A stretch of DNA of 64,000 bases from an uncultured archaeon. GTDB taxonomy: Archaea; Iainarchaeota; Iainarchaeia; Iainarchaeales; JAAZKV01. Positions 6,214 through 49,800 of this stretch are shown here, piece by piece. Both the position numbers and the translations under genes were made by a program. Location: the NCBI GenBank assembly GCA_964534045.1, contig CAZHNO010000001.1, forward strand, positions 1,786 to 65,785, read 5' to 3'. Every line of letters begins with the position of its first letter. The stretch's first letter is position 1. The notes beneath the pieces were generated by a model. That model saw only the letters and a list, made by a program, of their open reading frames with translations, made no database searches and was not told the origin of the DNA.

Positions 6214-6295
6214 TCAAAAATTACGTTTACTTGATTTATAATTGTTTGCAGGTGAAAGAAATAACAATAAAAACCATTGTGAATTTGTATTTACT

Positions 6296-7369
6296 ATGGA
6301 TATTAGTAAAAAAGTAGCTCTTGTAAAGGAAGTGGGTGAGGAGATACTCACCGAAGAAGAATTAAGAACACTTTTGGAAACAAAAAAAAATCCTGTTGCA
6401 TATGATGGTTTTGAACCTAGTGGACAAATGCATATTGCTCAAGGAATTTTAAGATCAGTAAATATTAACAAAATGATTGATGCTGGTTTCACATTTAAGA
6501 TGTGGGTTGCGGATTGGTTTGCATGGGCAAATAATAAATTAGATGGAAATTTAGAAAACATACAAACAGCGGGAAAATATTTAATTGAAGTTTGGAAAAC
6601 TACCGGAATGAATTTAGATAAAGTTGAATTTATTTGGGCTAATGAAGCAATGTCAGATGTTAATTATTGGAAAATAGTAATGAATGTTGCAACAACAAAT
6701 TCTCTAGCAAGAATAACAAGATGTTCACAAATAATGGGGCGAGATCAAAATGCTGCACTAAAAGCTTCACAAATTTTTTATCCATGCATGCAATGTGCAG
6801 ATATATTTTATTTAGGTGCGGATGCAACACAACTTGGAATGGATCAAAGAAAAGTTAATGTTTTAGCAAGAGAAGTTGGAGAAAAGCTTGGTTACTATAA
6901 GCCAATTGTAATTTCACACCACATGCTTGCTGGCTTAAAAGAAATTAATACAGATGCTACAGGAGCAGAGGCTGCAATTGCAAAAAAGATGTCAAAGAGC
7001 AATCCTGATTCAGCTATTTTTATGACTGATTCAACACAAGACATTCAGAGAAAAATATCAAAAGCATTTTGCCCAGAAAAGGTTGTTGAAGGAAACCCAA
7101 TTTTAGAATATAATAAGTTTATTGTTTTTGAAAAATTTGACAAAGTTAAAATTGAAAGGCCAATAAAGTTTGGTGGAGACGTTGAATACAAAACATATAA
7201 TGAAATGGAAAAAGATTTTGTTGAAGGAAAACTACACCCAATGGATTTGAAACAAACAACTGCAAAATGCCTTGATGAATTAGTTGAACCAACCAGAAAA
7301 CACTTTGAAAAAAATTCAAAAGCAAAAGATTTACTAAAACAAGTTCAAAGCTTTAAAATTACTAGATAA
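6296..7369 (+). CDS. tyrS: Tyrosyl-tRNA synthetase
   Basis: GFEPSGQMHIAQG (HIGH-type motif) and KKMSKS motif. The ATG at 6296 is preferred over the ORF-track start at 6242. Confidence 0.85.
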   Translation: MDISKKVALVKEVGEEILTEEELRTLLETKKNPVAYDGFEPSGQMHIAQGILRSVNINKMIDAGFTFKMWVADWFAWANNKLDGNLENIQTAGKYLIEVWKTTGMNLDKVEFIWANEAMSDVNYWKIVMNVATTNSLARITRCSQIMGRDQNAALKASQIFYPCMQCADIFYLGADATQLGMDQRKVNVLAREVGEKLGYYKPIVISHHMLAGLKEINTDATGAEAAIAKKMSKSNPDSAIFMTDSTQDIQRKISKAFCPEKVVEGNPILEYNKFIVFEKFDKVKIERPIKFGGDVEYKTYNEMEKDFVEGKLHPMDLKQTTAKCLDELVEPTRKHFEKNSKAKDLLKQVQSFKITR

Positions 7370-16247: not shown

Positions 16248-18164
16248 TTGATAGTAATGGGCTTTAGTAAGTTAAATATACATGAAAAAGTAATGAAAGG
16301 ATTAACAGAAATGGGTTTTGAAATCCCTACTTCTATCCAACAACGATGTATTCCTGAAATAAAAAAAGGACATGATATTGTTGGCCAATCATTAACCGGT
16401 TCGGGGAAGACCGCTGCATTTGGAATACCCTTGTTAGAACAGGTTACACCCGGTGAAGGAATACAAGCTTTAATTTTAACACCAACAAGAGAATTGTGTT
16501 TACAAGTAAGAGATAATTTAGAAAAAATGGGTAAATATGTTCCATTAAATATTAAGAGTATTTTTGGTGGAGTTGGTTATTACCAGCAAAGAGAAGACAT
16601 TTTGATTGCTGAAATAATTGTTGCAACACCAGGAAGATTACTAGATCATTTGAATCAAGGAAATATTAGTTTAGAAAAAGTAAAATTTGTTGTTTTAGAT
16701 GAAGCTGATAGAATGGTTGACATGGGTTTTTCAAAAGATGTAGAAAAAATTCTTAGAAAAACTGCTTCAAAAAGACAAACAACAATGTTCAGTGCAACAA
16801 TGCCTCCTGAAGCAAAGCACATAATCAAAACTTTTTTACACGAACCAATTTACATAACAGAACAATTGCAAGTTGATAATGAATTACTAAAACAAAAAGT
16901 GTATTACATAAGACAAGAAGATAAATTTTCTTTACTTGTTCATTTACTAAAACAAAATACTGGAAATGCAATTATTTTTTGTGGAAAAAAAAGAACTGTT
17001 GATAAGCTATCAAGAAATATTAGAAAACAAGGTTTTGCTGTAATGCCAATACATGGTGATATTGTTCAAAGCAAAAGACAAATGGCAATAAAAATGTTCA
17101 AAGATAAAAAAATTGATTTCTTAATAGCAACAGATGTTGCTGCAAGAGGAATTGACATTGACCACGTTTCACACATTTATAATTATGACACTCCAAAAAC
17201 ACCAGATGAATACACTCATAGAATTGGGAGAACTGCTCGTGCTGGAAAAAAAGGAGAAGCAATTAATTTAGTTAGTGAAAATGATAATGCACAATTTAAA
17301 GATATTTTAAAAGTTAGAAAAGAAATGACAGAAGAAGCGTTGCCCGAATTTGAAAAACTTGTATTTGAAAAAGGCTCTCACTCAAGAGACTTTGACAGAG
17401 ATTCTGGACGAAGCTTTGGAAGAAGTTCTGGGAGAGATTTTGGAAGACACCCAAAAGATAATTATAGAGGTGGAAAAGGCTCTGGAAGAAGTTCAAGAGA
17501 ATTTTTTAGAAACAGAGATGAGAATTCTCCAAGAAATAAATTTGGCCCAAAAACTGAAAGTTCTGAATCAAGTCCTTCTGAATCAGTTAGCCGAGATAGT
17601 TATGGAAATAGAAGTTCAGGAAGTAGTTATGGTAGAAGTTCTGGCGGTTATAGAGGAAATTATGGAAGAAGCTCTAGTGGCTATGGACAAAGGTCAAGTA
17701 ATTATAGAGGAAATTCTGAAGGTGGACGAAGTTCTCACGGTGGATACGGCAGAAGTTCTTCAGGCGAAAGTTCTGGGTATGGAAGAAGTTCTGGTAGAAG
17801 TAGTTACGGACGAAGTTCTAATGGTGGAAGAAGCCCTGGTGGCTATAGAGGAAATTCTGGCGGAGGATATGGAAGAAGCTCTGGTGGAAGTTCAGGTTAT
17901 GGAAGAAGTTCTGAAGGAAGTAGTTCTGGTAGAAGCCCAAGTGGTGGCTATGGAAGAAGTTCAAGTGGTTATGGAAGAGATTCTGGAGAAAGTTCAGGAA
18001 GAAGTTTTGGTGACAGAAGTGGAGCACCAAGAAGTAGTTTTCCAAACAAATTTTCTCACGCTAAACCAAAATCCTTTTCTCACAAACGTTCAGGCGAAGC
18101 AAGCAAACCTCGTAACTTCGGCAAAAGAAGAAATTATGTTAATAAAAAATCTAATAGAAATTAG
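16248..18164 (+). CDS. DEAD-box ATP-dependent RNA helicase with about 270-aa C-terminal G/S/R/Y-rich low-complexity tail
   Basis: Q-motif, TGSGKT, DEAD, SAT and HRIGRTARAG motifs. The tail is built from GYGRSS/GRSSG-type degenerate repeats. Confidence 0.85.
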   Translation: MIVMGFSKLNIHEKVMKGLTEMGFEIPTSIQQRCIPEIKKGHDIVGQSLTGSGKTAAFGIPLLEQVTPGEGIQALILTPTRELCLQVRDNLEKMGKYVPLNIKSIFGGVGYYQQREDILIAEIIVATPGRLLDHLNQGNISLEKVKFVVLDEADRMVDMGFSKDVEKILRKTASKRQTTMFSATMPPEAKHIIKTFLHEPIYITEQLQVDNELLKQKVYYIRQEDKFSLLVHLLKQNTGNAIIFCGKKRTVDKLSRNIRKQGFAVMPIHGDIVQSKRQMAIKMFKDKKIDFLIATDVAARGIDIDHVSHIYNYDTPKTPDEYTHRIGRTARAGKKGEAINLVSENDNAQFKDILKVRKEMTEEALPEFEKLVFEKGSHSRDFDRDSGRSFGRSSGRDFGRHPKDNYRGGKGSGRSSREFFRNRDENSPRNKFGPKTESSESSPSESVSRDSYGNRSSGSSYGRSSGGYRGNYGRSSSGYGQRSSNYRGNSEGGRSSHGGYGRSSSGESSGYGRSSGRSSYGRSSNGGRSPGGYRGNSGGGYGRSSGGSSGYGRSSEGSSSGRSPSGGYGRSSSGYGRDSGESSGRSFGDRSGAPRSSFPNKFSHAKPKSFSHKRSGEASKPRNFGKRRNYVNKKSNRN

Positions 18165-18234
18165 ATTTTAAAAAAATAGAAAACTTACCTAAATTGTTGA
18201 AGAGTTAATTTTTTTATAAAAAGTTTTTAAGTAT

Positions 18235-19041
18235 TTATTTGATTATTTCATCCAATAACTTCTTTTCAATCGCCAGGTGCTTGTCAAATCTTTTTGAATC
18301 AATTTTAATTTTTTTATTATTGCTTTTTAAAAAAGTTACTTTCCTCTTAGAGTTTTTTTTATTTAAAGTATCTATAATTTGACTAATTTTTGGAGTATAT
18401 TCTATTGCATTATAAATTCCTTCGCCATTTTTTATTGCTTTAAGTATTATTTTTGCAGCATCTTTTACATCGGTAATCATCAAAGTTGAATCTTTCGCAA
18501 ATCTTAAAGTTTTGTGTTTTTTATATTCAGTAATTATTTTTTTAACTCTATTCTCACTAGATTTTTCACCAATAAGAGTTGGAAACCTAAGAATTACAAA
18601 TTCAAATCCAAACTTTTTACTATATTTTATTATTTTCGTTTCAGCAATAAGTTTTGACTTTGCATAATCAGATAAATTTTTTCCACGTGTTTTCTCGTTT
18701 AACTTAATGGGGATTTTTTCTCCATAAACCGAACAACTTGATGTAAAAATAAATTTTTTTATTTTGTTTTTAACACAAAATTGTAAAAGATTTTCTGTAC
18801 CTTCAGCATTAACCAAATAGTAATCCTTCAGATTTTTTGTATGATTAAGCCCTGCTAAATGAATCACAATATCAAAATTTTCTTCAATAATAATGTTTTT
18901 TGTCAAATCAACTTGTTTGATTCCTTTTGCTTTGTGTCTACTCAATGCGATAAATGGAATTTTTTCTTTCTTTAATAAATTTATAACTTCTTTTCCCAAG
19001 AAGCCTGACGCCCCAGTGACTAAAACTTTTTCTTTGCTCAT
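18235..19041 (-). CDS. NAD-dependent epimerase/dehydratase family protein (short SDR)
   Basis: VLVTGASGFLG N-terminal Rossmann motif; 268 aa. Confidence 0.6.
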   Translation of the reverse strand: MSKEKVLVTGASGFLGKEVINLLKKEKIPFIALSRHKAKGIKQVDLTKNIIIEENFDIVIHLAGLNHTKNLKDYYLVNAEGTENLLQFCVKNKIKKFIFTSSCSVYGEKIPIKLNEKTRGKNLSDYAKSKLIAETKIIKYSKKFGFEFVILRFPTLIGEKSSENRVKKIITEYKKHKTLRFAKDSTLMITDVKDAAKIILKAIKNGEGIYNAIEYTPKISQIIDTLNKKNSKRKVTFLKSNNKKIKIDSKRFDKHLAIEKKLLDEIIK

Positions 19042-19076
19042 AAAGAATTAAAAACATCATTAACGCTTATATAAAT

Positions 19077-20234
19077 ATGGAAAAACTAGCTTTTTTTGGT
19101 GGCAAACCCATTTTAAAAGAAAAACCATTAATTAGCCCAAACATTTCAAAAAGTGCTCCAAAACTAATTATTAAGGCAATCAAGGATGGGGGGTTATCAA
19201 ATTTTGAGGGCAGTGGATTTGTATATAAGTTTGAAACAGAATTTGCTAAATTTAATGACACTAAATATGCTGTTGCAACAAATTCAGGAACATCTGCGCT
19301 ACACACCGCTTTGGCAACTTTTTCATTAAGTCCAAAAGATGAAGTTATCATTCCAGCATATACTTTTGTTTCAGGGGGGTCAATTGTAATTCAAGAAAAC
19401 GCAAAACTTGTTTTTGCTGATATAGAAAAAGACACTTATTGCATTGATCCAAAAAGTATTGAAGAATGTATTACTAAAAATACAAAAGCTATTATGCCAG
19501 TTCATATTTATGGACATCCTGCAAAAATGAAACAAATTAATAAAATTGCAAAGAAATTTGATTTAAAAGTAATTGAAGATTGTGCTCAAGCACATGGTGC
19601 GAAGATTGGAAACAAAATGGTTGGTTCTTTTGGAGATGCAGGATGTTATAGTTTTGCAAAAACAAAAAATATGACAACTGGTGAAGGTGGAATAGTTGTA
19701 ACTAATAAAAAAGAAATATCTGAAGAAGCAAAAATAATTAGACAAAATGGAAAAATTACTTGGAAAATACACAAAAGATTAGGTTATAATTATCGAATGA
19801 CAGAAATGCAGGCTGCTTTAGGAATCAGTCAGCTTCATGAATTAAAAAAATTTAATAAACTTCGTGAAAAGAATGCACTAGTTTATTTTAAAAAACTTAA
19901 AAATCTTGGATTAGAATTACCAAAAATTAGTCAAAATATAACCCATGCATATTACAAGTTACCTATTCTCATGCCTAAAGAATTAACAGAAAAACGAGGA
20001 ATATTTGTTAAAGCATGTATTCAAGAAAATATGCCTATTGAAACAGGATATTCTATTTCTTTAAACAAAATTAATTTTTTATCAAGTCATTCAAGAAAGA
20101 CAGAATGTCCAGTTGCAGAAGATTTTGTAAAAAGAATAATTAATTTGCCTGTTGCACCTTGTTTATCTACGCAAAAAATAGAGTTAATTTGTGAAGGCTT
20201 AAGAAAAGTATTTAATGAAATTGATTCTCTATAA
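19077..20234 (+). CDS. DegT/DnrJ/EryC1/StrS-family PLP-dependent sugar aminotransferase
   Basis: 385 aa; family layout with conserved region DCAQAHGA...GD...SF...K (the PLP-lysine region). Confidence 0.75.
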   Translation: MEKLAFFGGKPILKEKPLISPNISKSAPKLIIKAIKDGGLSNFEGSGFVYKFETEFAKFNDTKYAVATNSGTSALHTALATFSLSPKDEVIIPAYTFVSGGSIVIQENAKLVFADIEKDTYCIDPKSIEECITKNTKAIMPVHIYGHPAKMKQINKIAKKFDLKVIEDCAQAHGAKIGNKMVGSFGDAGCYSFAKTKNMTTGEGGIVVTNKKEISEEAKIIRQNGKITWKIHKRLGYNYRMTEMQAALGISQLHELKKFNKLREKNALVYFKKLKNLGLELPKISQNITHAYYKLPILMPKELTEKRGIFVKACIQENMPIETGYSISLNKINFLSSHSRKTECPVAEDFVKRIINLPVAPCLSTQKIELICEGLRKVFNEIDSL

Positions 20235-20238
20235 TTAT

Positions 20239-20574
20239 ATGAAAAGCCTGGTCAAAGGAATAATTGCTTCTAAAGGTATTGCTGAAGGCACTTGTGTTGT
20301 TGTTAATTCATTAGATGACTTTGCAAAGGTTAGTGAAGGCCAAATTCTCGTCGTGAAAAATACTGACCCTTCATTTGTGATTCTTTTTTCAAAAGTTTCT
20401 GGAATTATAACAGAAATTGGTGGAATGTGTTCACACGCAGCAATAGTATCAAGAGAAATGGGTTTGCCATGTATTGTTGGCACTGGCAATGCAAGAGAAA
20501 TTCTCAAAGACGGAATGAAAATTGTTTTGAATGCAAATGAAGGAATGGTTTATGAATCAAACAAAGATGAATGA
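20239..20574 (+). CDS. Stand-alone PEP-utilising-enzyme mobile (swivelling phosphohistidine) domain protein
   Basis: GGMCSHAAIVSREMGLPCIVGTG, the signature of the PEP-utilisers phosphohistidine domain. Only about 110 aa, with no ATP-grasp or PEP-binding domains attached. Confidence 0.6.
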   Translation: MKSLVKGIIASKGIAEGTCVVVNSLDDFAKVSEGQILVVKNTDPSFVILFSKVSGIITEIGGMCSHAAIVSREMGLPCIVGTGNAREILKDGMKIVLNANEGMVYESNKDE

Positions 20575-21646
20575 TTTTTTTAATTCACTAAATTATGCAA
20601 TTGAAAAAACAGATAGTGGCACTTTTTGGCCAGGGGGCGGTGGACAAATAGGTTCACCATTTGTTGCAATTGATGCTCTTGCCTTACACAATCAATTGCT
20701 TGAATTAAAAAAAAATAAAAGTGCTTCTGAATTAACAAACTTTTTTTATAATCCTTCTGTGATTCGCTATGTTGTTGTTGGAAATTTTATAATTGGACTA
20801 AAAGTTTTAATCCGTGATAAAAAGATTTCTCTTGAGTCTGCAAAAGAATCTCTTGAATTTTTTTTAGATATACTTGATTCAAAAATGGATTCAGACCCTT
20901 TTTGTGTTACTGGAAAAAATAATTGGTTTAGCCAAAAAAAAGTTAATATATTAGTTCAAAATTTAACTTTTAATAGTGCAGATGAAAAAGAACAGACACT
21001 CATTTCAAGAATGGTTATAGCTCTAAATTCTCTTGTTTGGTCTTTTTATTATGATATTTATGTTGAAGCAGGTTTTGAATTCCATGGACCTTATAATATT
21101 GAATTTAATGGAAAAAAATATTCTCTTTTAATAAGAGATTATCATGACTTAAAACCAATTGACCTTTGGGAGAATGCTAAAAAAATTAGTAATCAGTCAG
21201 TTAAATTGTATTTACTTTACTCTAGAGTTGACATAAAGCTAGATTATTTTATGCATGAATTATCAGATGAACCATTGCGAAAGAACCTCGCATTTTATGC
21301 AATTGAATTAACTGATTCTGAAGGCAAAAAAAGTTTTGTTCAAGTTAATGATTGTATAGAAATTATTGAAGAAGTAGAAAAAACTACATTTGAACAAGTT
21401 AATTTTGTAAACAAGCTTGATACTATAGAAAAAATAAAAAAAGGAGCAATGATTTGTTTTTATCAACTCAAAAGTTTTCGTGAAAAAATTGGTATTGATT
21501 GGAAACCATCAAAAGAAGTTTTTGAAGCAATTGATACAAAAGGTTTAGAAAAATGGGAAAAATTTAAAGCAAGAGCAAATGCCATTAGCACTGGAACTGC
21601 AAATATTGATTGGAGTGCAAAATACGATTTAAACAAGCCCTTGTAA
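20567..21646 (+). CDS. Hypothetical protein (translationally coupled to PEP-utiliser domain gene)
   Basis: The ATG overlaps the upstream stop (atgaATGA). About 360 aa with no recognisable motif. Confidence 0.35.
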   Translation: MNDFFNSLNYAIEKTDSGTFWPGGGGQIGSPFVAIDALALHNQLLELKKNKSASELTNFFYNPSVIRYVVVGNFIIGLKVLIRDKKISLESAKESLEFFLDILDSKMDSDPFCVTGKNNWFSQKKVNILVQNLTFNSADEKEQTLISRMVIALNSLVWSFYYDIYVEAGFEFHGPYNIEFNGKKYSLLIRDYHDLKPIDLWENAKKISNQSVKLYLLYSRVDIKLDYFMHELSDEPLRKNLAFYAIELTDSEGKKSFVQVNDCIEIIEEVEKTTFEQVNFVNKLDTIEKIKKGAMICFYQLKSFREKIGIDWKPSKEVFEAIDTKGLEKWEKFKARANAISTGTANIDWSAKYDLNKPL

Positions 21647-22654
21647 TTATAAAACAACACTACTTGTTTCACACTTTCTCGCCATTTCAATAATTTTTTT
21701 AGTATCCATATCAATTGTATTTTTATATGATTTTGAGAGTTTGTTTCCATTTCTATCTTTTACAACTGGAGTTATTAGAGTTAGTGGTTCTTCAAAATCT
21801 GGTTCAAACTCTTTAAGTAGCAAAGAATTAACATTCACACTTCCCCCATTATAATGATCTCCCCCTCGAATACACAAATCTATTTTAAGCAATAAAAGTC
21901 TTGGAATCAACAAAGGCTTGTGATAAATCCAATAATCAAATTCTGTTATATTTTTTTCAAATGTTTTTCCACATTTTTTACACTCAAATAGTGTTGTTGA
22001 TTTATTGATTTTTGTTTTACCATTTGATTCTTTGCAAGCTGGACAAATTGCACCAGCATAGTGTGCCAGTTCAGGAATTATTTTTTCACCAGTTGCTTTT
22101 TTTATAATTTCAGCAATCTTTTGAGGTTGCTGAATAGCTATTTTTAAATATTTTTGAAAAACTTTTTCACCAAGCAATGATGAATTTCTCACAAACTCAA
22201 TTTTTATTTTAGGAAACTCTTTTTCAAACGCATTTTTCATTTCTTTTCTTATCAACTCTTCATAGTGATCAATTATCTTTTCATGACATTTACCACTATC
22301 TAGCAGATTTCCAATATTTGTTTTTTCACAAATTATATTTGACCCATAGGTTGGTTCTTCAGTATCAAGATAGTCCGCAATCTTTTTGTAATAATAATTT
22401 TTACCATCAAATTCAAGATAGGATAATTCATTTGGCTCAAAATCATTTAGTGATATAAAAATAGTAAACTCTGGTTCTGTCCCATTCTTTTTTAGTTGTT
22501 CTGCAAGTAAATAGGGATAAGCAATTAATGCCATTTTATTCCCTGCGTGAAAACCAAATGGCCTTATTCCAATATGAATTTTTTCTTTGCCAGTTAGTTT
22601 CTTTGAAATTTCTTTTAAGCCATCCAAATACAAGTATGTTTTTTGTTTCATCAA
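21647..22654 (-). CDS. Class-I lysyl-tRNA-synthetase-like catalytic domain protein (truncated, no anticodon-binding domain)
   Basis: GIRPFGFHAGN matches the LysRS-I HIGH-region (G.TPSG..H.GN). KLSKSYKN matches the KMSKS-type motif. Also present: DLCIRGGDH (D.EP.GKDH-like) and a zinc-ribbon insertion CPACK...CKKCG. Only 335 aa against about 520 aa for LysRS-I. Confidence 0.6.
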   Translation of the reverse strand: MMKQKTYLYLDGLKEISKKLTGKEKIHIGIRPFGFHAGNKMALIAYPYLLAEQLKKNGTEPEFTIFISLNDFEPNELSYLEFDGKNYYYKKIADYLDTEEPTYGSNIICEKTNIGNLLDSGKCHEKIIDHYEELIRKEMKNAFEKEFPKIKIEFVRNSSLLGEKVFQKYLKIAIQQPQKIAEIIKKATGEKIIPELAHYAGAICPACKESNGKTKINKSTTLFECKKCGKTFEKNITEFDYWIYHKPLLIPRLLLLKIDLCIRGGDHYNGGSVNVNSLLLKEFEPDFEEPLTLITPVVKDRNGNKLSKSYKNTIDMDTKKIIEMARKCETSSVVL

Positions 22655-23679
22655 TAATCAACTCTTGATAAAAATTTATTTGCTTGACAATTTATTGGAT
22701 CACAGGAATCACAAATTCCAGGTTTTCCAGCATTTTTCATTTTTTCTTTTCTATTTTTGCTTTCCCAAATGTGCTTCACCGAGTGTGTAAAAATATTCCC
22801 AAGTAAAAATTTATCCCCTTTATAGGGCGTGTTAGCGCATGGATAAACTGCACCTGTTGCATCAAGAAATAAAGTATATTTGGACACAGTACAATCTATA
22901 TTCTTATAAAAATTTTTTGTATAATTGCCTGCTAAAGTATTTTCCATGTCAGCTGGTTCACCAAAAACAAATGGATTTTCATGTCTCAATTTTGTGTTGG
23001 TTTTTGAAGCCATTTTCTTGATCATTGGAACAATCCTATCATTATAATCCTTAACCTGTGTTTCATTAAGAAATAAATTTTTATTTCCCCTAATTGGAAT
23101 TAAATTTAATTCATCAAACAATTTACCACCATATTCATCCATCAACTCATGAATGTGCTCATAATTCAAATTATTTACAACATAGTTTACGATAACCTTC
23201 TGATTTGGGGACTTTTTTTTAAGAAATTCTAAATTACCAATTATCTTTTCAAAACTTTTTATCCCCCTTATTCTATTATGAGTTTCTGCCCTAGAAGAAT
23301 CAATTGACACATGTATTTGCTTTGGTGAATACATCAGCACCCTATTTATTATTTCTCTTGACAAGGTAAATCCATTTGTTATAAACGAAAAATCCATCCC
23401 CAAATCTTTTGTCAACATCATTGTCTCAAAAAAATATGGATAGATTGTTGGTTCTCCACCAGTCAACCTTATTTCTTTTGTACCCAACTCTTTTGCATCA
23501 ATAACTGCATTTTTTATTTTTTCAAAAGTTAGACCAGAATCAGTTTTTTTCCAAAAATCACACATAATGCATCTTGAATTGCACCTATAGGATGGCCTAA
23601 TTATGAAAAGTAATGGTTTTGTTACGCCAGCTTTATCTAGTGATAACACTTCATTTTGCAGTAAATCATCCACTACCAA
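22651..23679 (-). CDS. Radical SAM enzyme with C-terminal SPASM-like Cys cluster
   Basis: CNSRCIMC (CxxxCxxC) near the N-terminus and GGEPT glycine-rich motif. The C-terminus carries CANTPYKGD...GICDSCDPINC, typical of SPASM/twitch auxiliary clusters. Confidence 0.75.
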   Translation of the reverse strand: MVVDDLLQNEVLSLDKAGVTKPLLFIIRPSYRCNSRCIMCDFWKKTDSGLTFEKIKNAVIDAKELGTKEIRLTGGEPTIYPYFFETMMLTKDLGMDFSFITNGFTLSREIINRVLMYSPKQIHVSIDSSRAETHNRIRGIKSFEKIIGNLEFLKKKSPNQKVIVNYVVNNLNYEHIHELMDEYGGKLFDELNLIPIRGNKNLFLNETQVKDYNDRIVPMIKKMASKTNTKLRHENPFVFGEPADMENTLAGNYTKNFYKNIDCTVSKYTLFLDATGAVYPCANTPYKGDKFLLGNIFTHSVKHIWESKNRKEKMKNAGKPGICDSCDPINCQANKFLSRVDY

Positions 23680-24628
23680 ACACCTCTTGAATTAATTTAT
23701 AATATTTCCCAGCATACTTATTTTCTTTAAACTTTTTTGGCAGAATCGAAAAGTAAAAACTTTTTGATTCTTTACATGCCTTTGAAAAGGCAAGGTTTAG
23801 AATATTTTTTGGTGTAATGAAAACCTTTTCTTTGGCAACAGAAGAGTACATTCGTTTTTTTCCAAATAAGTTTGGAGTTGGCAAATAGGCCAAGTGGAAC
23901 AGCCTTTTGTTTTTTGATATACGCCTTGCAGTTTGTACTGCCTTTACTTGCTGAATATTTTCTACCACTAGAATGGTTGGATTTTTTATCTGGGTTAGCT
24001 CTTCCAAAAAATCAGGGAGATAGGTTACCAAAAATCGCTTATGAAGATTTACTTTTGTTTTATCCAATTTTAAAAAGGCTTCTTTCGCCCGATGGTCATT
24101 ATTTCCAATATAATATAATGTATCAAGTTCTTGTTGAGTAACTTTTTTTTCTATATTTTTTACATATTTTTCAATAAGCATATTTACTCTCTTTTCTGAT
24201 GTGTCAATAATCTGTATTTCTTCATAGTCAAGCGATTTGCTGATATCAGAAATAATTTTTTCAAATACTTTTTTTGTTTCAGACCAACTTTTTCCACTTC
24301 TCAATTCTTCTTCTTTTATACTTAGATAAATAAATGCTGGAACCTTAATTTCTTTTGCAAGCAAAATAAGATTTGTTAAATCATTAATACTTTCTATTGT
24401 AATAGAATCAAAATTATCCGTTATACATGGCCCACCAATTACTATTGTATTTTTGCTAAATTTTTTTGGAATTCCTTTTGTCACTCCTATGAATTGCCTT
24501 TGTTTCAATGTTTCCAAATCTAGCTCAGTTTTTTTTATTGAATCAAGCCCATATCGCTCATTAATTTTAGCACTTCCTTCCCAATACCACTCTCTCAAGA
24601 AGAAATCTAAACTATTAATTCTGTACAT
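23666..24628 (-). CDS. Hypothetical protein (operon member)
   Basis: 320 aa, overlaps both neighbours, no motif recognised. Confidence 0.35.
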   Translation of the reverse strand: MYRINSLDFFLREWYWEGSAKINERYGLDSIKKTELDLETLKQRQFIGVTKGIPKKFSKNTIVIGGPCITDNFDSITIESINDLTNLILLAKEIKVPAFIYLSIKEEELRSGKSWSETKKVFEKIISDISKSLDYEEIQIIDTSEKRVNMLIEKYVKNIEKKVTQQELDTLYYIGNNDHRAKEAFLKLDKTKVNLHKRFLVTYLPDFLEELTQIKNPTILVVENIQQVKAVQTARRISKNKRLFHLAYLPTPNLFGKKRMYSSVAKEKVFITPKNILNLAFSKACKESKSFYFSILPKKFKENKYAGKYYKLIQEVFGSG

Positions 24629-25056
24629 ATTTCCCCTTCCAAAATTTTTGGTATTTCTGTTTCATCCCTAAACCTAATTATTTTTGAATCAGTAACTGAT
24701 GAAAGCCCATTAACCAGTGGAGAATATTCAGTTTCTTCATGAAGCAATAAAATTATTCTTTTGTTTAAAGCAGATGCCCACCCTAATTCTACTTGCACGC
24801 CTCCAGAAGGCGGATTTCCAACAATGGCTAAAAATAAATCACAATCTTGTATTTCTTTGAAATCTTCTTTTGTGCACACCAATGGGTGCATCAATTCTTT
24901 TCCAAATTTTTCTCTTTTATGCGCATTTCTTACAACATGTCCTTTTTGTTCAAGTTGTTCAATTAGGTTAATAATAAAATTAACTTTGTGAGTATGAACT
25001 ATACTTGTATTTTTATTAATGTCCTGAGTAAATGGCGCACCCAAAAATATTTGCAT
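24607..25056 (-). CDS. Nucleoside 2-deoxyribosyltransferase-like protein
   Basis: 149 aa; DLFLAIVGNPPSGGVQVELGWASA resembles the NDT-family catalytic-Glu segment (D.GT.FE.G-type). Confidence 0.45.
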   Translation of the reverse strand: MQIFLGAPFTQDINKNTSIVHTHKVNFIINLIEQLEQKGHVVRNAHKREKFGKELMHPLVCTKEDFKEIQDCDLFLAIVGNPPSGGVQVELGWASALNKRIILLLHEETEYSPLVNGLSSVTDSKIIRFRDETEIPKILEGEICTELIV

Positions 25057-25057
25057 T

Positions 25058-26203
25058 TTAAACTCCTCCTAAAAGTTTATTTATTTCTTTTACTATTGCT
25101 GGCAGTCCATTTCCACCAAGTTTGTTAAAATATTTTTTTTGTTTTCTAGTAATTTTTTCTAGTTCTGCAGAATCTTTTTGAACAGAATCTAAAATATAAT
25201 TAGCGAGTTTATCCCAGCTTTTTCTATCACCATCAAATCTATTAACACATGCAAGTACTTTTTTTATTCCAGAAAGCTCATCTTCATTTTCATCAATTTG
25301 CACATCATAATAATCACTCCAGTTTAGTGAATTCTGGGCAAGACCTTGGTTATTAAATCCCCTAAGATTCCAAAATTGACTATAGTTTTGTGGTGGCAAA
25401 AAAAACACTGGAGTTCCAACGTTAAATGCTTCAAAACTTGTTGTCAACCCAGGTGAAGAAATTAACATTTTTGCTGATGCCAATTCTGCTATAAATTCAT
25501 CATGCCCTAAAAAGTCATAAGTTATTTTAGTGGATTTGTTTTTCCTCTGAAGCTCATCCATTACTTTTCCATTTCCAAGACAAAGAATTTTATCAAAATC
25601 TAATTTGCCTTCAATCTCGTCTAAGATTTTTGCTATGGCAAAAGGATAATTTGAGTTTTCTCCGATTTTTACTGATGCTGATTCCATTCCACCAAAATTT
25701 ATTATTAATTTATTTGATTTCTTTACTTTTGGATAATCTTTTACTATTGGGCCAACCAATCGTGGGTTCTTTATTTTATCAAAATAATTAGCCAACTGTT
25801 TTTCCACACCTTCAAAATTTTGTATAAAATAAATTTCAGAATTAAGTATTTCATCAGGAATTGTTTCCCACATCCAAAATAGACTATCTATTTGAATTTG
25901 TGGTTTTCCAATCCCATGCACAAACTTTGCAGATACTGGGTTCATTACATTTACAAAAATATCTGAGGTTTTTATGCGCATTTCCTGTTCTTTCAGAGAA
26001 TCTATGCTTTCCGTATTACATTGTATAAGTGAATCAATACGACTTTTGTTTGCAAGTTGTTGGCTAGTGCCCGAAACCATCATTGAGACACGATTGTCTT
26101 TACCAAGTTGCTCAGAAACAGTAAGCATTTTTGATACGGGCCCAAAACAAAAAGGAACTGCATCACATAGGATTGTGTGCATTTCACATGAAGACATAAA
26201 CAT
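25058..26203 (-). CDS. GT-B-fold glycosyltransferase-like protein (tentative)
   Basis: 381 aa. The C-terminal half has a G-rich nucleotide-sugar-binding-like segment (SSPGLTTSFEAFNVGTPVFFLP) as in MGT/GT28-type enzymes. Confidence 0.4.
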   Translation of the reverse strand: MFMSSCEMHTILCDAVPFCFGPVSKMLTVSEQLGKDNRVSMMVSGTSQQLANKSRIDSLIQCNTESIDSLKEQEMRIKTSDIFVNVMNPVSAKFVHGIGKPQIQIDSLFWMWETIPDEILNSEIYFIQNFEGVEKQLANYFDKIKNPRLVGPIVKDYPKVKKSNKLIINFGGMESASVKIGENSNYPFAIAKILDEIEGKLDFDKILCLGNGKVMDELQRKNKSTKITYDFLGHDEFIAELASAKMLISSPGLTTSFEAFNVGTPVFFLPPQNYSQFWNLRGFNNQGLAQNSLNWSDYYDVQIDENEDELSGIKKVLACVNRFDGDRKSWDKLANYILDSVQKDSAELEKITRKQKKYFNKLGGNGLPAIVKEINKLLGGV

Positions 26204-26278
26204 TTATAAGCCCTATAATATATATTGTTTGTTATTATGCTTTGAACAAAGGCATATGATTATTTAATATGTGATTAA

Positions 26279-27547
26279 ATGGATATTAATAAGTATTTTG
26301 TGCCCCTGAGTAGCCATCGCCTTTGGTGGGAAAAAACCTTCCTATCAAAAATTCAGCCAAATCGAAGAATTAATGTTTATTATTCCCCAAATGCATCCGG
26401 ATTACACTACTTTTTTATTTCACAATTATGGTTTTTATCAAAACTCTCAGCTCTTGGCGATGTACACTACTACATAATTTTAAATGATCAGGTTTTTAAT
26501 AGCCCAAAAAATATACTTACAAAGGACGAAGCAAAAAAAGAAAGATTAAATGAAACTACTGCTGCTTTGAGTTTTTTTGGAGTAAACCCAGAAAAAATTC
26601 ATTGTTACTTTTATTCAGATTGTGTAAATAAATTGTTTTCTAAAAATCCCAGAACCCCATTTATTTTCTCAAAAAGCCTTAGACTTATTTCACCAAAAAT
26701 ACTTAATCTTCCAAAAATTAATATTGAATATGAATATTTAGGAGATGAACATAGTTACCCGTTATCTTACTACTTACCAAAAGTAATGGACTTACTTATT
26801 ACACAAGATTTTCATAACTTTTTTCCAGAAGATATTGATGGAAAAATTGACGTTTTCGTTTCAAGTTGGTTTGGAATGTCCTTAATATCAAAGCTTCATC
26901 CATTATTTGTAGAAAAGGGAATTGTTACCGATTTAAAACCAATTGTTGTTTCAACTAAAAAAGTGCCTTTTTTTGGACACAATAAAAGTTACTATCCAAG
27001 ACATATCGCACCAAGCATCAACATGAGTGTTGAAGATATTTATGAAGCCATAATTATTTACAATGTTAAGGAAGCACATATGGAAAGCTTACTTAAAGAC
27101 ATTTTAATACCAAACCTTGACAACGAGTTTTTCTTACCAAGCTCACCGGGAGAAGTAATAAAATCATCAAAAATAACTGACTTTAAAAAATTAAAATTTG
27201 AAAAAAAAGCATTATCCTTAGCTTACTCTTTCAATGAATTTTTTAAAAAAATAAATTCCTCCATTAAAGAATCTCCTAAAAAAAATTATTTGCTTATTGA
27301 AAACAATTCTGATTTGGAAGATATTAGCATATTATTCAAGTCTCCACTAGCTCTTCTTGTTCTAAACGAATGTGATGGAAAAACTATTTCAGAAATTTCT
27401 AAAAAGCTTGATAAACATCAACCAAATATAAGTAAAATAATTTCTAGTTTGAAACGTGCTGGGCTTGTTGAAAGTAATAATAAGGGCCATTTATTTGTAC
27501 AAGTTAACACAATAAAAGTAAATTTATCAAATATACTAAAAAAGTAG
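26279..27547 (+). CDS. Degenerate TyrRS/TrpRS-like Rossmann domain fused to C-terminal winged-helix DNA-binding domain
   Basis: N-terminal VYYSPNASGLHYFF...KLSALGDVHYYIILNDQ aligns with this contig's TyrRS (AYDGFEPSGQMHIAQG...KMIDAGFTFKMWVADW). The HIGH motif glycine is lost. The C-terminal LVLNECDGKTISEISKKLDKHQPNISKIISSLKRAGLV is ArsR/MarR-like. Confidence 0.4.
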   Translation: MDINKYFVPLSSHRLWWEKTFLSKIQPNRRINVYYSPNASGLHYFFISQLWFLSKLSALGDVHYYIILNDQVFNSPKNILTKDEAKKERLNETTAALSFFGVNPEKIHCYFYSDCVNKLFSKNPRTPFIFSKSLRLISPKILNLPKINIEYEYLGDEHSYPLSYYLPKVMDLLITQDFHNFFPEDIDGKIDVFVSSWFGMSLISKLHPLFVEKGIVTDLKPIVVSTKKVPFFGHNKSYYPRHIAPSINMSVEDIYEAIIIYNVKEAHMESLLKDILIPNLDNEFFLPSSPGEVIKSSKITDFKKLKFEKKALSLAYSFNEFFKKINSSIKESPKKNYLLIENNSDLEDISILFKSPLALLVLNECDGKTISEISKKLDKHQPNISKIISSLKRAGLVESNNKGHLFVQVNTIKVNLSNILKK

Positions 27548-27551
27548 TTTT

Positions 27552-28043
27552 CTACAATTTTTTTATTTCTAAATACTTTGCAATCTTTGATCTTAAAAAA
27601 GGGGTTAATGATTTGGCTACTGCAAGCTGTTCATCCCTTGGAAGTCTTTCAAATGCCTTTATCATATTTGCTTGCGCTGTTTGTGGATTAAAAATTCTTT
27701 TTTTTAATTCAGAAGTATTAACTGCTGGGCGAATAACATCTTTCTTTTGAGGAATAAATTGAGCCCCTTGCTTTTTTCTTTCTGCTTTTTCTAGTTTTGC
27801 ATGCTCTCTTCTTTGAGCATCCAGCTCATGAAGTTCAACCATAGTTAATTTGCCTGACATTAACCCTTGAATCATTGAAGATATTTTTGTTACTTCATGA
27901 CTAGCATTTGCTTCCTGTGCAACCCTTAATCTTTTAGAAAGATGTTGATAAACAGGATGTTCCCAATATTTTTTTGGATCAAACCTTGGAATTCCATTAG
28001 GCACTTCTTTCATTTTTGGCTTTTGCTCTCTTTTTTTAGGCAT
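27552..28043 (-). CDS. Basic hypothetical protein
   Basis: 163 aa, Lys/Arg-rich (MPKKREQKPK...). Visibly more G+C-rich codon usage than its neighbours. Confidence 0.35.
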   Translation of the reverse strand: MPKKREQKPKMKEVPNGIPRFDPKKYWEHPVYQHLSKRLRVAQEANASHEVTKISSMIQGLMSGKLTMVELHELDAQRREHAKLEKAERKKQGAQFIPQKKDVIRPAVNTSELKKRIFNPQTAQANMIKAFERLPRDEQLAVAKSLTPFLRSKIAKYLEIKKL

Positions 28044-46883: not shown

Positions 46884-49800
46884 ATGAAAAAGATAGTAAA
46901 AATTTGGTTAATCGTTATTTTGATAGTTTTAGCTATCGTATTAATAAACTCAAATTTTTCTTTCACAGGGCTTTTTTTGCAAAAACAGGAATCAATTAGT
47001 TTTTCAGGAATTTGTAATAGCAATAACATTTGTGAAATTGGAGAGGATGATGAAAATTGTCCACAAGATTGTTTACCCAGGGCACCCAAAAATGAAAACT
47101 GCTTGTGCATTTACAGAAACGGAGATATTAATTCAGAAAAAATCTGTGAATATTATGCTGAAAAAAGGCCAGGAGTACATACTCTTGGTTTAAACTTAAG
47201 TTCAGGGATAGAAAGTGCACAAAAAAGCGTATTCATTTCTGAAGTTATTGATCCTCTTTGGGAATGGGTGGAAGCAAATGATGAATTAAAAATAACTCAT
47301 TTGGCAGTTGCAAGAGGCATTCCTACTGAAGTAATAATTGGAAATAGAACATATGGTGCTGCTTCAATGTTAGCCCTTTCAAAAGAATTTTATGATATTA
47401 GTCCTGGAATATCAGGAAATACACTAACTTTTATTCACTTTGATCCTGAAAAATATAAAACTGATGATGGAAAATATACATTCAGATTTGCTGTATCTTA
47501 TTTAACTGCTTATCAATTGGAAGATGTTTTAAAAATGATTGATAAAGCACAAGCCCCTATCCAAAATTTTGATGAATTAAAATGGTTTTTTGATGCGGAT
47601 GAAGATGAATTTCCAACAACTAAAATAAACTTAAAACAAGTTAAAGCAGAGTTAATAAAACAAGGAGTTCTTCCAGAAAATATTATTCTTGATTTTAACA
47701 ATGCTTTGCATACAAATCCTGAAGGCCCGATAATTGGATTTAATAGTGCAGGAAGACACCACACCGGTTATAGTCATTTATGGATGACACAAGAAAAATA
47801 TTTTAATCTTGAAGTTGCTAATCGCGCAATAATGAGTAGCGTTGAAAGTTATAATGCACACACTTTTTTTGGAAAACCTGATGAAAATATTGACGAAAGA
47901 ACAATTGGCCAAGGAAGAATTGCTGATGCTGTAAGCAAGATAGCTTTTGGGGGAGAAAATTATTCAAATAGTTTTGCAGGAGCAGGGGGAAATGTTACAG
48001 AACCATATCTGGGGTATCACATGAATGCAGAAAGATTTTTACCAGCATATGCTACTGGTTTAACACTTGGTGAAACTTTTTTAACAACACACCCATTAAG
48101 ATGGACTGCAATAATGATTGGAGACCCTTTAATGAGATTGATTGAAGATGATAAAGTTGGTTTACCAAATGGTACTGCTTGTGAAAATAATTCTCAATGT
48201 TATTCTAGAATTTGTGGAAATTCTCAAATTGGAGAAAAATTTTGTCATGCAAATCAAAATAATTGTGTTTATACTCAACAAAGTTTTGTTTATGATCTTA
48301 TGAATGGAAACAAAATTTGTAAGGAAATTACGAGCCAAACTGATATTTTATTTACTTGTGAAAATGGTACTTGGAAATTAGAAAAAGCCCCGGAGGAATA
48401 TTTGTGTAAATCAGTAAACTCTTTTTGGGATTTTGACGCAGACTTTTTTAAAAAAAATGGATTAGTTTGTTTGTCTGATGAAGAGTGTTATTCAAATGAT
48501 TGTAAAAAAGATTTAAGTGGAATAAAAAGATGTCAAAATAAAGACATTTGTCCAGTAAATAAAACTCAATATGTTAATAATAATTCATTTGCTTGTGTCT
48601 CAGAAAACCAAAAAATAAAATGTGTTAATGGTGAATGGGTAAACGGAATAATCAATTGCGATAATGAATGTATTGATGGAATGTGTTTGGGCGAATTTTT
48701 TACCCCTCCAAATATATTTACTATTGAAAAAAACAGGGATTATTATATGGCATTACCCATTAATCCTTCTTCAAAAAAAGTAAGTGATATTTTTGGAACA
48801 AATTTAGATTCTGGTAATCAAATTTATTTTTTTAGAAATAGTTGGACTTCAACAAGTTTTATTAAATTTGGAACAATTGAACAGTGGAATCCTGATTTGG
48901 AAATTAAAAATGGCGAGGGTTTTTTATTGAATCTAAATAGTGATATTAACATAATTATTGAAGGAGATGAAATAACTGAATCATTTCCTATTGAAATTAA
49001 AGGAAGTTCTAATTTGATAGGAATTCCAACACTGGGTAAAAAAAGAATGGCTTCTGAAGTTTTAGAAGAAATTAATTTACTAGATGATAGCTGTTATACA
49101 ATAAAATCTGGAGGAGGAAATGGAAAAAGTTATTCTATTACTAATGAAGGTGTTGAAGGAGAAGATTTTGAAATTTTTAATTATATTGCTTATTGGATTA
49201 TTTGTGATGAAAATACTAATATTACTTGGGTGCCTTTTGAAAATGAATGTACTCCTGGAGAATTTTGTGGATTAAATAGTTGTGAAGCAAATTATTGTGT
49301 TGATAATTTACTAAAAAAATTTCCACAAAATTGTGAAAAATTTTGTAATAATAACAGAGAATGTGTAGGTTGTTCTTGCACAGTAATTGAACAAAATTGT
49401 GGTTCAAATGCACTATGTTCTAATGGGGTTTGTTTAAGTTGTGGAGATAATTTTGCTAATTGTGATGGGATTACTGGCAATGGTTGTGAAATAAATGTTA
49501 AAGAAGATAACGGAAATTGTGGTTCTTGTGGAAATATTTGTGGTGATGGTAAAGAGTGTATTAATGGCGTTTGTGAAGATATAAATTTATGTAAAAATAT
49601 AAATTGTGGAACGAATGCATTTTGTAAATCTGAAACAGGTTCTTGTGAATGTTTTAACAATTATTTAAATTGTGATAATAACTTTAGTAATGGATGTGAG
49701 CTTAGTACAAGTACAGGTTGTCCAGAATGTGAAAATAATGAAAGTAGACTTTGTGTAAATGAAAAATTGTGTTTAGGTTCGCAAGCTTGTGAAAATAAAA

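Follow-up and report, generated by a model that had tools for sequence, protein, structure and literature searches.

We propose that a gene in the 64,000-nucleotide stretch of archaeal DNA analyzed here encodes a one-component regulator of a kind built from an enzyme, in which a noncatalytic sensor derived from tyrosyl-tRNA synthetase (TyrRS) is joined to a winged helix-turn-helix (wHTH) of the ArsR/Csa3 type and controls a divergently transcribed operon for nucleoside biosynthesis. We give this reading a probability of about 0.6. The stretch, referred to below as the window, comes from an uncultured archaeon of the Iainarchaeales (GenBank assembly GCA_964534045.1, contig CAZHNO010000001.1, positions 1,786 to 65,785), is AT-rich (about 29% G+C), and carries the gene on its plus strand at 26279-27547. 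The list of open reading frames (ORFs) confirms the gene as a preliminary description of this DNA had reported it, with 422 amino acids and an ATG start. A TyrRS-like fold that lacks the catalytic motifs, an attached wHTH, and a head-to-head operon together make an enzyme-derived transcription regulator the most likely identity of the product.

The N-terminal region is predicted to adopt a whole TyrRS fold

The preliminary description had proposed a degenerate class I aminoacyl-tRNA synthetase (aaRS) domain, of the TyrRS or tryptophanyl-tRNA synthetase (TrpRS) type, fused to a wHTH, and had pointed to structure prediction as a check. An AlphaFold2 (AF2) model computed from an alignment of 34 family sequences reached a pLDDT of 89.7 and a pTM of 0.76. 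Most 10-residue blocks of the N-terminal domain scored above 90, and low confidence was limited to the loop at residues 74-82. An earlier AF2 run with 5 close homologs had given a pLDDT of 49 and was unusable.

Comparison of the model with the PDB by Foldseek yielded 225 matches at E <= 1e-3, and the figures that follow refer to the best 50 of these 225. All 50 were TyrRS or TrpRS, with a probability of 1.00 and E-values from 1.2e-10 to 2.6e-7; ranks 1 to 39 and most of the others were TyrRS of the archaeal/eukaryotic type, and the rest were TrpRS. Human TyrRS (4Q93) was the top match (E 1.2e-10). The alignments extended over 318 to 360 columns against targets of 299 to 368 residues, at target-normalised TM scores of 0.44 to 0.62 and identities of 10 to 16%, and these best 50 included no CARF chain and no cyclodipeptide synthase (CDPS) chain. 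Since the matches span nearly the full length of TyrRS, the model predicts that residues 1 to about 335 (26279-27283, plus strand) form an entire class Ic synthetase body, going beyond a Rossmann core: a Rossmann fold, CP1-like helices, and a C-terminal helical/hairpin domain, which we regard as a predicted pseudoenzyme sensor. Structure prediction thus found an aaRS-like fold in the N-terminal half, and together with the wHTH matches given below it agrees with the proposed fusion. The extent first assigned to the aaRS-like region (residues 30-120 or 1-260) was too small.

Sequence comparison of the N-terminal region

Residues of about 30-120 had initially been aligned block by block with the window's own TyrRS. 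The three TyrRS strings quoted in support are present in that protein (nt 6410, 6470, and 6599). BLASTP of the regulator against it gave a best E of 0.28, in unrelated segments, and did not recover the blocks, whose similarity is not above chance. In the predicted structure the blocks do fall on the right elements (beta1 and the HIGH loop, helix A-beta2, and helix-beta3), so that the structural placement stood while the sequence similarity was insignificant.

Other searches gave a similar outcome. BLASTP against two proteins of the neighboring operon, a lysyl-tRNA synthetase (LysRS)-like protein and a 320-amino-acid protein, returned nothing significant. Residues 1-345 had no match in Pfam, NCBIfam, or the PDB sequences, whether used singly or as a 5-sequence profile, and phmmer and hmmsearch searches of the PDB sequences with the regulator and with profiles A2 and A3 found wHTH matches only. 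In Pfam and NCBIfam, the window protein, a set of 5 N-terminal domains, and 9 of 10 diverse N-terminal domains did not match PF00579 or another aaRS family (Pfam E <= 10 for the domains). The N-terminal domain of the divergent member P0028 had a single Pfam match at this threshold, to PF00579 (E 0.058, 13.1 bits against a cut-off of 21.1). This match is collinear, with residues 47-126 aligned to model positions 25-97, and it suggests a weak but independent sequence trace of TyrRS in the correct register.

Profile-profile comparison was made with hhalign. When the 34-member family profile was aligned with TyrRS profiles built from 5 and from about 120 sequences, E-values were 0.11 to 0.15 and probabilities below 1%, which is not significant. 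The TyrRS profile was shallow (effective number of sequences, Neff, 2.6) because the homolog search returned mostly close relatives, and hhalign in global mode misaligned the family with TyrRS. The alignment is collinear (residues 17-328 to 16-305 of M. jannaschii TyrRS) and serves as a tentative residue map only.

Catalytic motifs are lost and candidate pocket residues are kept

The position of the lost HIGH motif, placed by DSSP, the family alignment, and the hhalign register, corresponds to residues 41-49 (GLHYFFISQ; 26399-26425, plus strand; family consensus NYYxLxQ). In the model it follows the strand formed by residues 30-35 and lies at the start of helix 44-59. The regulator contains no HxGH in any register: the glycine is replaced by an aromatic residue and the second histidine is missing. 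In place of KMSKS there is a loop of residues 227-250 (TKKVPFFGHNKSYYPRHIAPSINM; 26957-27028, plus strand) in which P230, F232, and G233 are conserved. The KMSKS-equivalent part of this loop reads ...VPFFGHNKSYYP... (FFGHNKSYYP) and is not conserved; K236 is not kept even in close homologs, P0003 and P0004 having NFEVYP. No KMSKS-like string was found anywhere in the regulator. The loss of both motifs, suspected from the beginning, therefore holds for the protein as a whole and for the aligned positions.

Several residues of the domain are well conserved. The best-conserved ones are Y44, D70, G101, S113, K168, P230, F232/G233, P245, and M249. Y44, D70, G101, K168, P230, and G233 are conserved at 83 to 96%, with D70 kept in 96% and Y44 in 92% of the family; no column of the domain is invariant across the family (A3 alignment). 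D70 ends strand beta2, which closes with N69-D70 (26459-26488, plus strand) and would, by the family alignment and hhalign, be the equivalent of the TyrRS "ADxHA" strand. A further motif, Y164-x3-K168-x2-D171 (26768-26791, plus strand; family consensus Y..QK..DLF), is 71 to 83% conserved, and from the alignment we tentatively equate its three residues with Y151/Q155/D158 of the tyrosine-pocket helix of M. jannaschii TyrRS. Several members have A, P, T, or F where the regulator has S36, the serine after beta1, and this lack of conservation argues against CDPS-like catalysis. Because HIGH and KMSKS are lost and possible remnants of the pocket are kept, the N-terminal domain looks like a pseudoenzyme, presumably with a retained binding cavity.

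The C terminus is a winged helix of the ArsR/Csa3 type

The wHTH, of the ArsR/SmtB or Csa3 type, occupies residues of about 341-422 (27299-27547, plus strand). Residues of about 358-405 match Pfam HTH_5 with 22.7 bits against a cut-off of 22, along with TrmB and MarR, and CzrA/ArsR structures came up in the search with the family profile (E 1.7e-5), in keeping with the ArsR/MarR-type wHTH originally described at this end of the protein. HVO_A0114 was matched in 27 of the 34 family members. The PADLOC match to Csa3 (6.5e-7) and the best match among PDB sequences (2WTE) both cover only residues of about 327-418. NCBIfam HTH_metalloreg scored 22.3 bits against a cut-off of 55, and no obvious Cys/His cluster, only C365, was seen by eye in residues 341-422; metal sites were not compared.

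In the model, residues 343-414 run in the order helix, helix, helix, strand, strand. The recognition helix KHQPNISKIISSLK (residues 379-392) is nearly invariant in the family, and nowhere is the protein better conserved than in the pattern K379-H-x-x-N383-x-S385...L391-K392 of this helix. Conservation in the wHTH reaches 100% for G367, S385, and L391 and 96% for N383.

The family is small and its full-length architecture is conserved

A word-indexed search of 5.8 billion proteins returned four homologs with identities of 53 to 69%. Using the profile of the N-terminal domain, HMMER found 30 proteins at E <= 1e-3 among 1.84 billion cluster representatives, none of which was an aaRS; most were 396 to 432 amino acids long, and the others were shorter, with a minimum of 127. 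The wHTH is present in every full-length member (about 400 to 430 amino acids; A3 alignment). Where sources are named, they are given as "archaeon" or as Candidatus Diapherotrites/Iainarchaeum, i.e., DPANN archaea, and the only names of members in the databases are of the kind "helix-turn-helix/ArsR family regulator." A profile scan of genome contigs with alignment A1 gave 0 confirmed loci.

Conservation of the regulator over its full length extends to 4 close and about 25 distant homologs. We considered a decaying TyrRS pseudogene and rejected it, because the full-length architecture and the motif positions are conserved among members down to 17% identity.

A conserved BlsD/BlsM/BlsE-like operon lies head-to-head with the regulator gene

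A spacer of 75 nt (26204-26278) separates the regulator gene from five minus-strand genes at 21647-26203, which are tightly packed or overlapping, and the divergent layout reported earlier is correct. Gene 1 (25058-26203) encodes a glycosyltransferase that resembles cytosylglucuronate synthase of the BlsD/MilC type (TIGR04467 E 8.5e-21, below cut-off). Gene 2 (24607-25056) belongs to the nucleoside 2-deoxyribosyltransferase family and is of the BlsM-like nucleotide hydrolase type (PF05014 E 1.8e-7, above cut-off); BlsM is a nucleotide hydrolase that supplies cytosine. The product of gene 3 (23666-24628) is the 320-amino-acid protein mentioned above. It is kept in related loci, its fold was not recognised, and it has no match in Pfam, NCBIfam, the PDB sequences, or PADLOC. 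Gene 4 (22651-23679) encodes a radical SAM/SPASM protein (PF04055 2.7e-26; SPASM 2.1e-10) that may be BlsE-like or viperin-like, with matches below cut-off to rSAM_BlsE (2.1e-19) and viperin (4.5e-22) and a PADLOC match to pVip (2.2e-25). Gene 5 (21647-22654), an accessory gene, encodes the truncated class I LysRS-like protein (PF01921 E 7.9e-17), which has 335 amino acids, a HAGN variant of HIGH, KLSKS, and a 4-Cys ribbon (CPAC...CKKC) and lacks an anticodon-binding domain. We take this protein to be reminiscent of BlsK, the tRNA-dependent aminoacyltransferase of blasticidin biosynthesis. Its gene is the last of the window operon and is missing from L001, the sole related locus that fully spans the position.

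BlsD/MilC links free cytosine with UDP-glucuronate, giving a product that is decarboxylated by BlsE in the biosynthesis of blasticidin S (PMC3715490). Since the operon combines a glycosyltransferase, a BlsM-like hydrolase, and a BlsE-like radical SAM protein, it resembles, as far as sequence similarity goes, the first part of a pathway to a modified (cytosine) nucleoside sugar; it may also be read as viperin-like. The preliminary description had called the operon aaRS-like, which we do not uphold: the conserved core is BlsD/BlsM/BlsE-like, and only the fifth gene is aaRS-like.

Further genes of the cluster lie upstream on the plus strand and encode a DegT aminotransferase, a stand-alone PEP-utilizer swivel domain, and a conserved 371-amino-acid protein without assignment. 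A nearby minus-strand gene of the epimerase/dehydratase family was named from the Pfam matches of its L001 counterpart. Searches of the PDB sequences with the 371-amino-acid and LysRS-like proteins found no match. The cluster as a whole (18235-26203, both strands) resembles early blasticidin/mildiomycin-type nucleoside biosynthesis. PADLOC did not identify it as a known defence system and gave only a generic pVip-like match to the radical SAM protein.

The regulator is divergent from the block of glycosyltransferase, nucleoside deoxyribosyltransferase, 320-amino-acid protein, and radical SAM genes in all eight loci examined from the window's clade (the window, P0002, P0003, P0004, P0005, P0008, P0011, and P0016), whose homologs are 24 to 65% identical to the window protein. 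We infer ligand-sensing control of the adjacent operon, an inference backed by this 8/8 conservation of divergent synteny. None of the five members examined from other clades lies beside the operon. P0006 (32% identity; L009 8001-9895 and L010 4097-5991) stands between the L11 and L1/L10/L12 ribosomal-protein genes, with a gene for an HD-domain hydrolase overlapping its 3' end. P0010 adjoins GcpE and Fic genes, P0013 precedes CDP-alcohol phosphatidyltransferase, PfkB, and MFS genes, P0022 adjoins two polyprenyl synthase genes, and P0028 adjoins radical SAM and CYTH genes. Varied contexts outside the window's clade are what a family of transcription factors that serve different regulons should show, and the pattern across the family is that of clade-specific regulons. 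The ribosomal-protein cluster around P0006 is an unexpected site for a pathway regulator.

The intergenic spacer and a candidate operator

The 75-nt spacer (26204-26278) is the divergent promoter region and the presumed operator; it is AT-rich and contains two copies of TGATTA. Pairs of TGATT[AT] are located at -22/-7 upstream of the regulator gene in the window, at -25/-8 in L005 (3100-3134), at -48/-29 in L011 (5110-5140), and at -72/-51 in L012 (5521-5548), the two copies being 15 to 21 nt apart. Among the 61 ORFs of the window, the regulator gene is the single one with two copies in its 70-nt upstream region, and the pair is absent upstream of the members found in other contexts. The pair could be an operator half-site, or partly a ribosome-binding site. 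A near-palindrome, TGCTTTGAACAAAGGCA, was also considered as operator and was rejected, being specific to the window and not conserved in L001.

Other genes of the window

A genuine housekeeping TyrRS is encoded at 6242-7369 on the plus strand (PF00579 E 1.3e-48; KMSKS present). Its nearest named relatives are from Candidatus Diapherotrites/Iainarchaeum, which makes the host a DPANN-type archaeon. Since the database copy has 357 amino acids, translation probably begins 18 codons after the ORF start. As the window has this bona fide TyrRS of its own, the regulator is not the housekeeping enzyme. Among solved structures, the window TyrRS is closest to plant, Plasmodium, and Leishmania TyrRS (E 1e-117 to 1e-104), with archaeal structures scoring lower (E 1e-80 to 1e-50).

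Convergent to the regulator gene lies a minus-strand gene (27552-28043) for a basic protein of 163 amino acids without family assignment, and proteins of 164 to 174 amino acids occupy the matching position in L001 to L007. The plus-strand ORF 16248-18164 shows, by eye, GKT, DEAD, SAT, and HRIGRTARAG motifs and a C-terminal tail of about 250 residues made of degenerate GRSS/GYGRSS repeats; the out-of-frame ORF 17350-18171, which overlaps it, is an artefact of this repeat. At 55110-57170 on the minus strand, a 686-amino-acid protein fuses glutamine amidotransferase, asparagine-synthase, and diphthamide-synthase (Diphthami_syn_2) domains. The 1,309-amino-acid ORF at 46884-50813 (plus strand) has no Pfam match at E <= 1e-5.

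Proposed mechanism and alternative explanations

In the mechanism that we propose, the sensor would be a complete, catalytically dead copy of an archaeal/eukaryotic-type TyrRS, and the wHTH at residues of about 341-422 would be the output. The TyrRS-derived body probably still dimerises and probably keeps part of the old amino-acid/adenylate pocket, namely Y44, D70, Y164, K168, and D171. Because the ATP-handling HIGH and KMSKS motifs are gone, a small molecule would be bound without turnover. Occupancy by this ligand would shift the seating of the paired wHTHs on the 75-nt divergent promoter region and so govern transcription of the neighboring operon, and probably of the regulator gene as well, either by repression or by activation. 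As ligand, the simplest guess would be an intermediate or product of the pathway, a nucleoside conjugate resembling an aminoacyl-adenylate.

Several points weigh against this reading. Several pocket-like residues are well conserved, which may leave room for residual catalysis. The equivalences to TyrRS pocket residues come from a nonsignificant alignment and are possibly off by 1 to 3 positions. The spacing of the TGATT[AT] copies is variable, and the proximal copy may be a Shine-Dalgarno sequence. Finally, k-mer sharing and repeat finding detected no conserved palindrome or operator in six to nine of the AT-rich upstream regions.

The conserved residues also bear on an unlikely alternative, in which the protein combines catalysis with repression, as BirA and NadR do: one reaction of the nucleoside pathway would still be carried out by the TyrRS-like body and linked to transcription through the wHTH. 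The reaction might be, for example, the addition of an amino acid to an amino-sugar nucleoside, through an unorthodox ATP site or from aminoacyl-tRNA as in CDPSs. BirA itself shows that an enzyme of aaRS fold can carry a wHTH, and this alternative is in line with the strict linkage to a biosynthetic operon whose aminotransferases would make the acceptor amine, as well as with the conservation of Y44, D70, G101, K168, P230, and G233. CDPSs, which are TyrRS/TrpRS-like, also function without HIGH or KMSKS (PMC9437257). However, these motifs are missing in every register without a conserved basic motif in their stead, S36, close to where CDPSs have their nucleophile, varies, and no residue of the N-terminal domain is invariant. 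Moreover, the five members of other clades are found in unrelated contexts, and the LysRS-like protein of the operon, with its intact HAGN and KLSKS, is already there for such chemistry.

It is quite improbable that the protein senses nucleic acid, with the body binding charged or uncharged tRNA, or the wHTH binding RNA, and operon expression being tied to translation status. The Foldseek alignments do take in the C-terminal, anticodon-binding-like domain of TyrRS, given their 318 to 360 columns against 299 to 368 residues, and the location of P0006 inside a ribosomal-protein cluster would suit such a role; yet the wHTH specifically matches the DNA-binding ArsR/CzrA and Csa3 families, and the contexts of the other members are metabolic. 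The resemblance to TyrRS might, lastly, be a modelling artefact, the N terminus being another Rossmann-like sensor (e.g., CARF-like) in an ordinary regulator of the ArsR/Csa3 family. We consider this very unlikely. Sequence searches never reached aaRS families at significant E-values, the first AF2 run was of low confidence, and Csa3 has the most similar wHTH, but the second model is confident across the N-terminal domain and its best 50 Foldseek matches are all near-full-length TyrRS or TrpRS. In addition, the domain of about 335 amino acids is over twice the size of CARF, and the weak PF00579 match of P0028 is independent and in the correct register. The remaining probability belongs to roles outside the readings named here, among which we favor the noncatalytic, TyrRS-derived regulator.

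Comparison with known systems and significance

The regulator is like archaeal/eukaryotic TyrRS (1J1U of M. jannaschii; 1N3L and 4Q93, human mini-TyrRS) in its predicted whole-body fold and in the order of its secondary-structure elements, and it may keep traces of the tyrosine-pocket helix (Y..K..D) and the "AD" strand. Unlike TyrRS, it has no significant sequence match to these enzymes (10 to 16% identity), no HIGH or KMSKS, and an extra C-terminal wHTH; its family is tiny and confined to DPANN-type archaea, and its host has a separate TyrRS.

A functional analogy may be drawn with BirA, the biotin protein ligase and bio repressor, and NadR, an HTH joined to NMN adenylyltransferase. Both combine a helix-turn-helix, winged or not, with a domain of aaRS fold or of HIGH-type nucleotidyltransferase fold, and ligand or adenylate occupancy controls an operon of the same pathway. 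BirA has its wHTH at the N terminus and a class II-like catalytic domain, and both proteins are active enzymes with intact ATP motifs, whereas the regulator has a class Ic domain, a C-terminal wHTH, and lost ATP motifs. Csa3/CasR has the domain order of the regulator, with an N-terminal Rossmann-type sensor followed by a C-terminal wHTH. Its sensor is a CARF domain of about 130 amino acids, in contrast to the TyrRS-like body of about 335, and the regulator has no CRISPR context. No CARF domain was found in the regulator: the PADLOC and PDB matches are confined to the wHTH, and the N-terminal domain is predicted to fold as TyrRS.

The CDPSs AlbC, Rv2275, and YvmC are Rossmann domains derived from class Ic aaRS that lack HIGH and KMSKS and act in secondary metabolism (PMC9437257). 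They have no C-terminal tRNA-binding domain and carry a conserved catalytic serine, whereas the regulator keeps the whole TyrRS body, does not conserve the equivalent serine, and has an appended wHTH. By the variable S36, the fold alignment over full TyrRS length, and the absence of any such Pfam match at E <= 10, it does not group with the CDPSs. HisZ, a HisRS paralog without adenylation activity, senses a pathway metabolite as the regulatory subunit of ATP-phosphoribosyltransferase (PMC9437257); unlike the regulator, this class II protein exerts allosteric control over an enzyme and lacks a domain for DNA binding. In its proposed mode of action the regulator would come closest to BirA, NadR, Csa3, and HisZ, in all of which a sensor of enzyme or Rossmann origin is coupled to regulation. 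A 2022 review of aaRS duplication names no function for any paralog of TyrRS or TrpRS and does not mention DNA-binding fusions (PMC9437257), and our literature search brought up no relevant account of a regulator resembling TyrRS or TrpRS. An enzyme-derived sensor in a one-component regulator is of a known kind, and a TyrRS-type sensor is apparently undescribed.

More speculative, and in our judgment rather doubtful, is the idea that a class I aaRS scaffold here serves a transcription factor as receptor for a look-alike of aminoacyl-adenylate, be it a (peptidyl/amino-sugar) cytosine nucleoside from the operon or tRNA. If true, this protein would be a synthetase-derived feedback switch in DPANN archaea for a translation-targeting or antiviral nucleoside. 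As the class I equivalent of BirA, it would also be the first TyrRS paralog to act outside translation, and its presence would hint at a nucleoside pathway of blasticidin/viperin type in archaea. Paralogs of aaRS are a classic source of new functions, and a whole dead TyrRS body combined with a wHTH would be a new route of exaptation from enzyme to sensor. Sequence-based annotation misses this sensor, as members of the family are called only HTH or ArsR regulators. The regulator also provides a handle on an unstudied BlsD/BlsM/BlsE-like operon, and a nucleoside antibiotic or antiviral in DPANN archaea, with their minimal metabolism, would matter ecologically.

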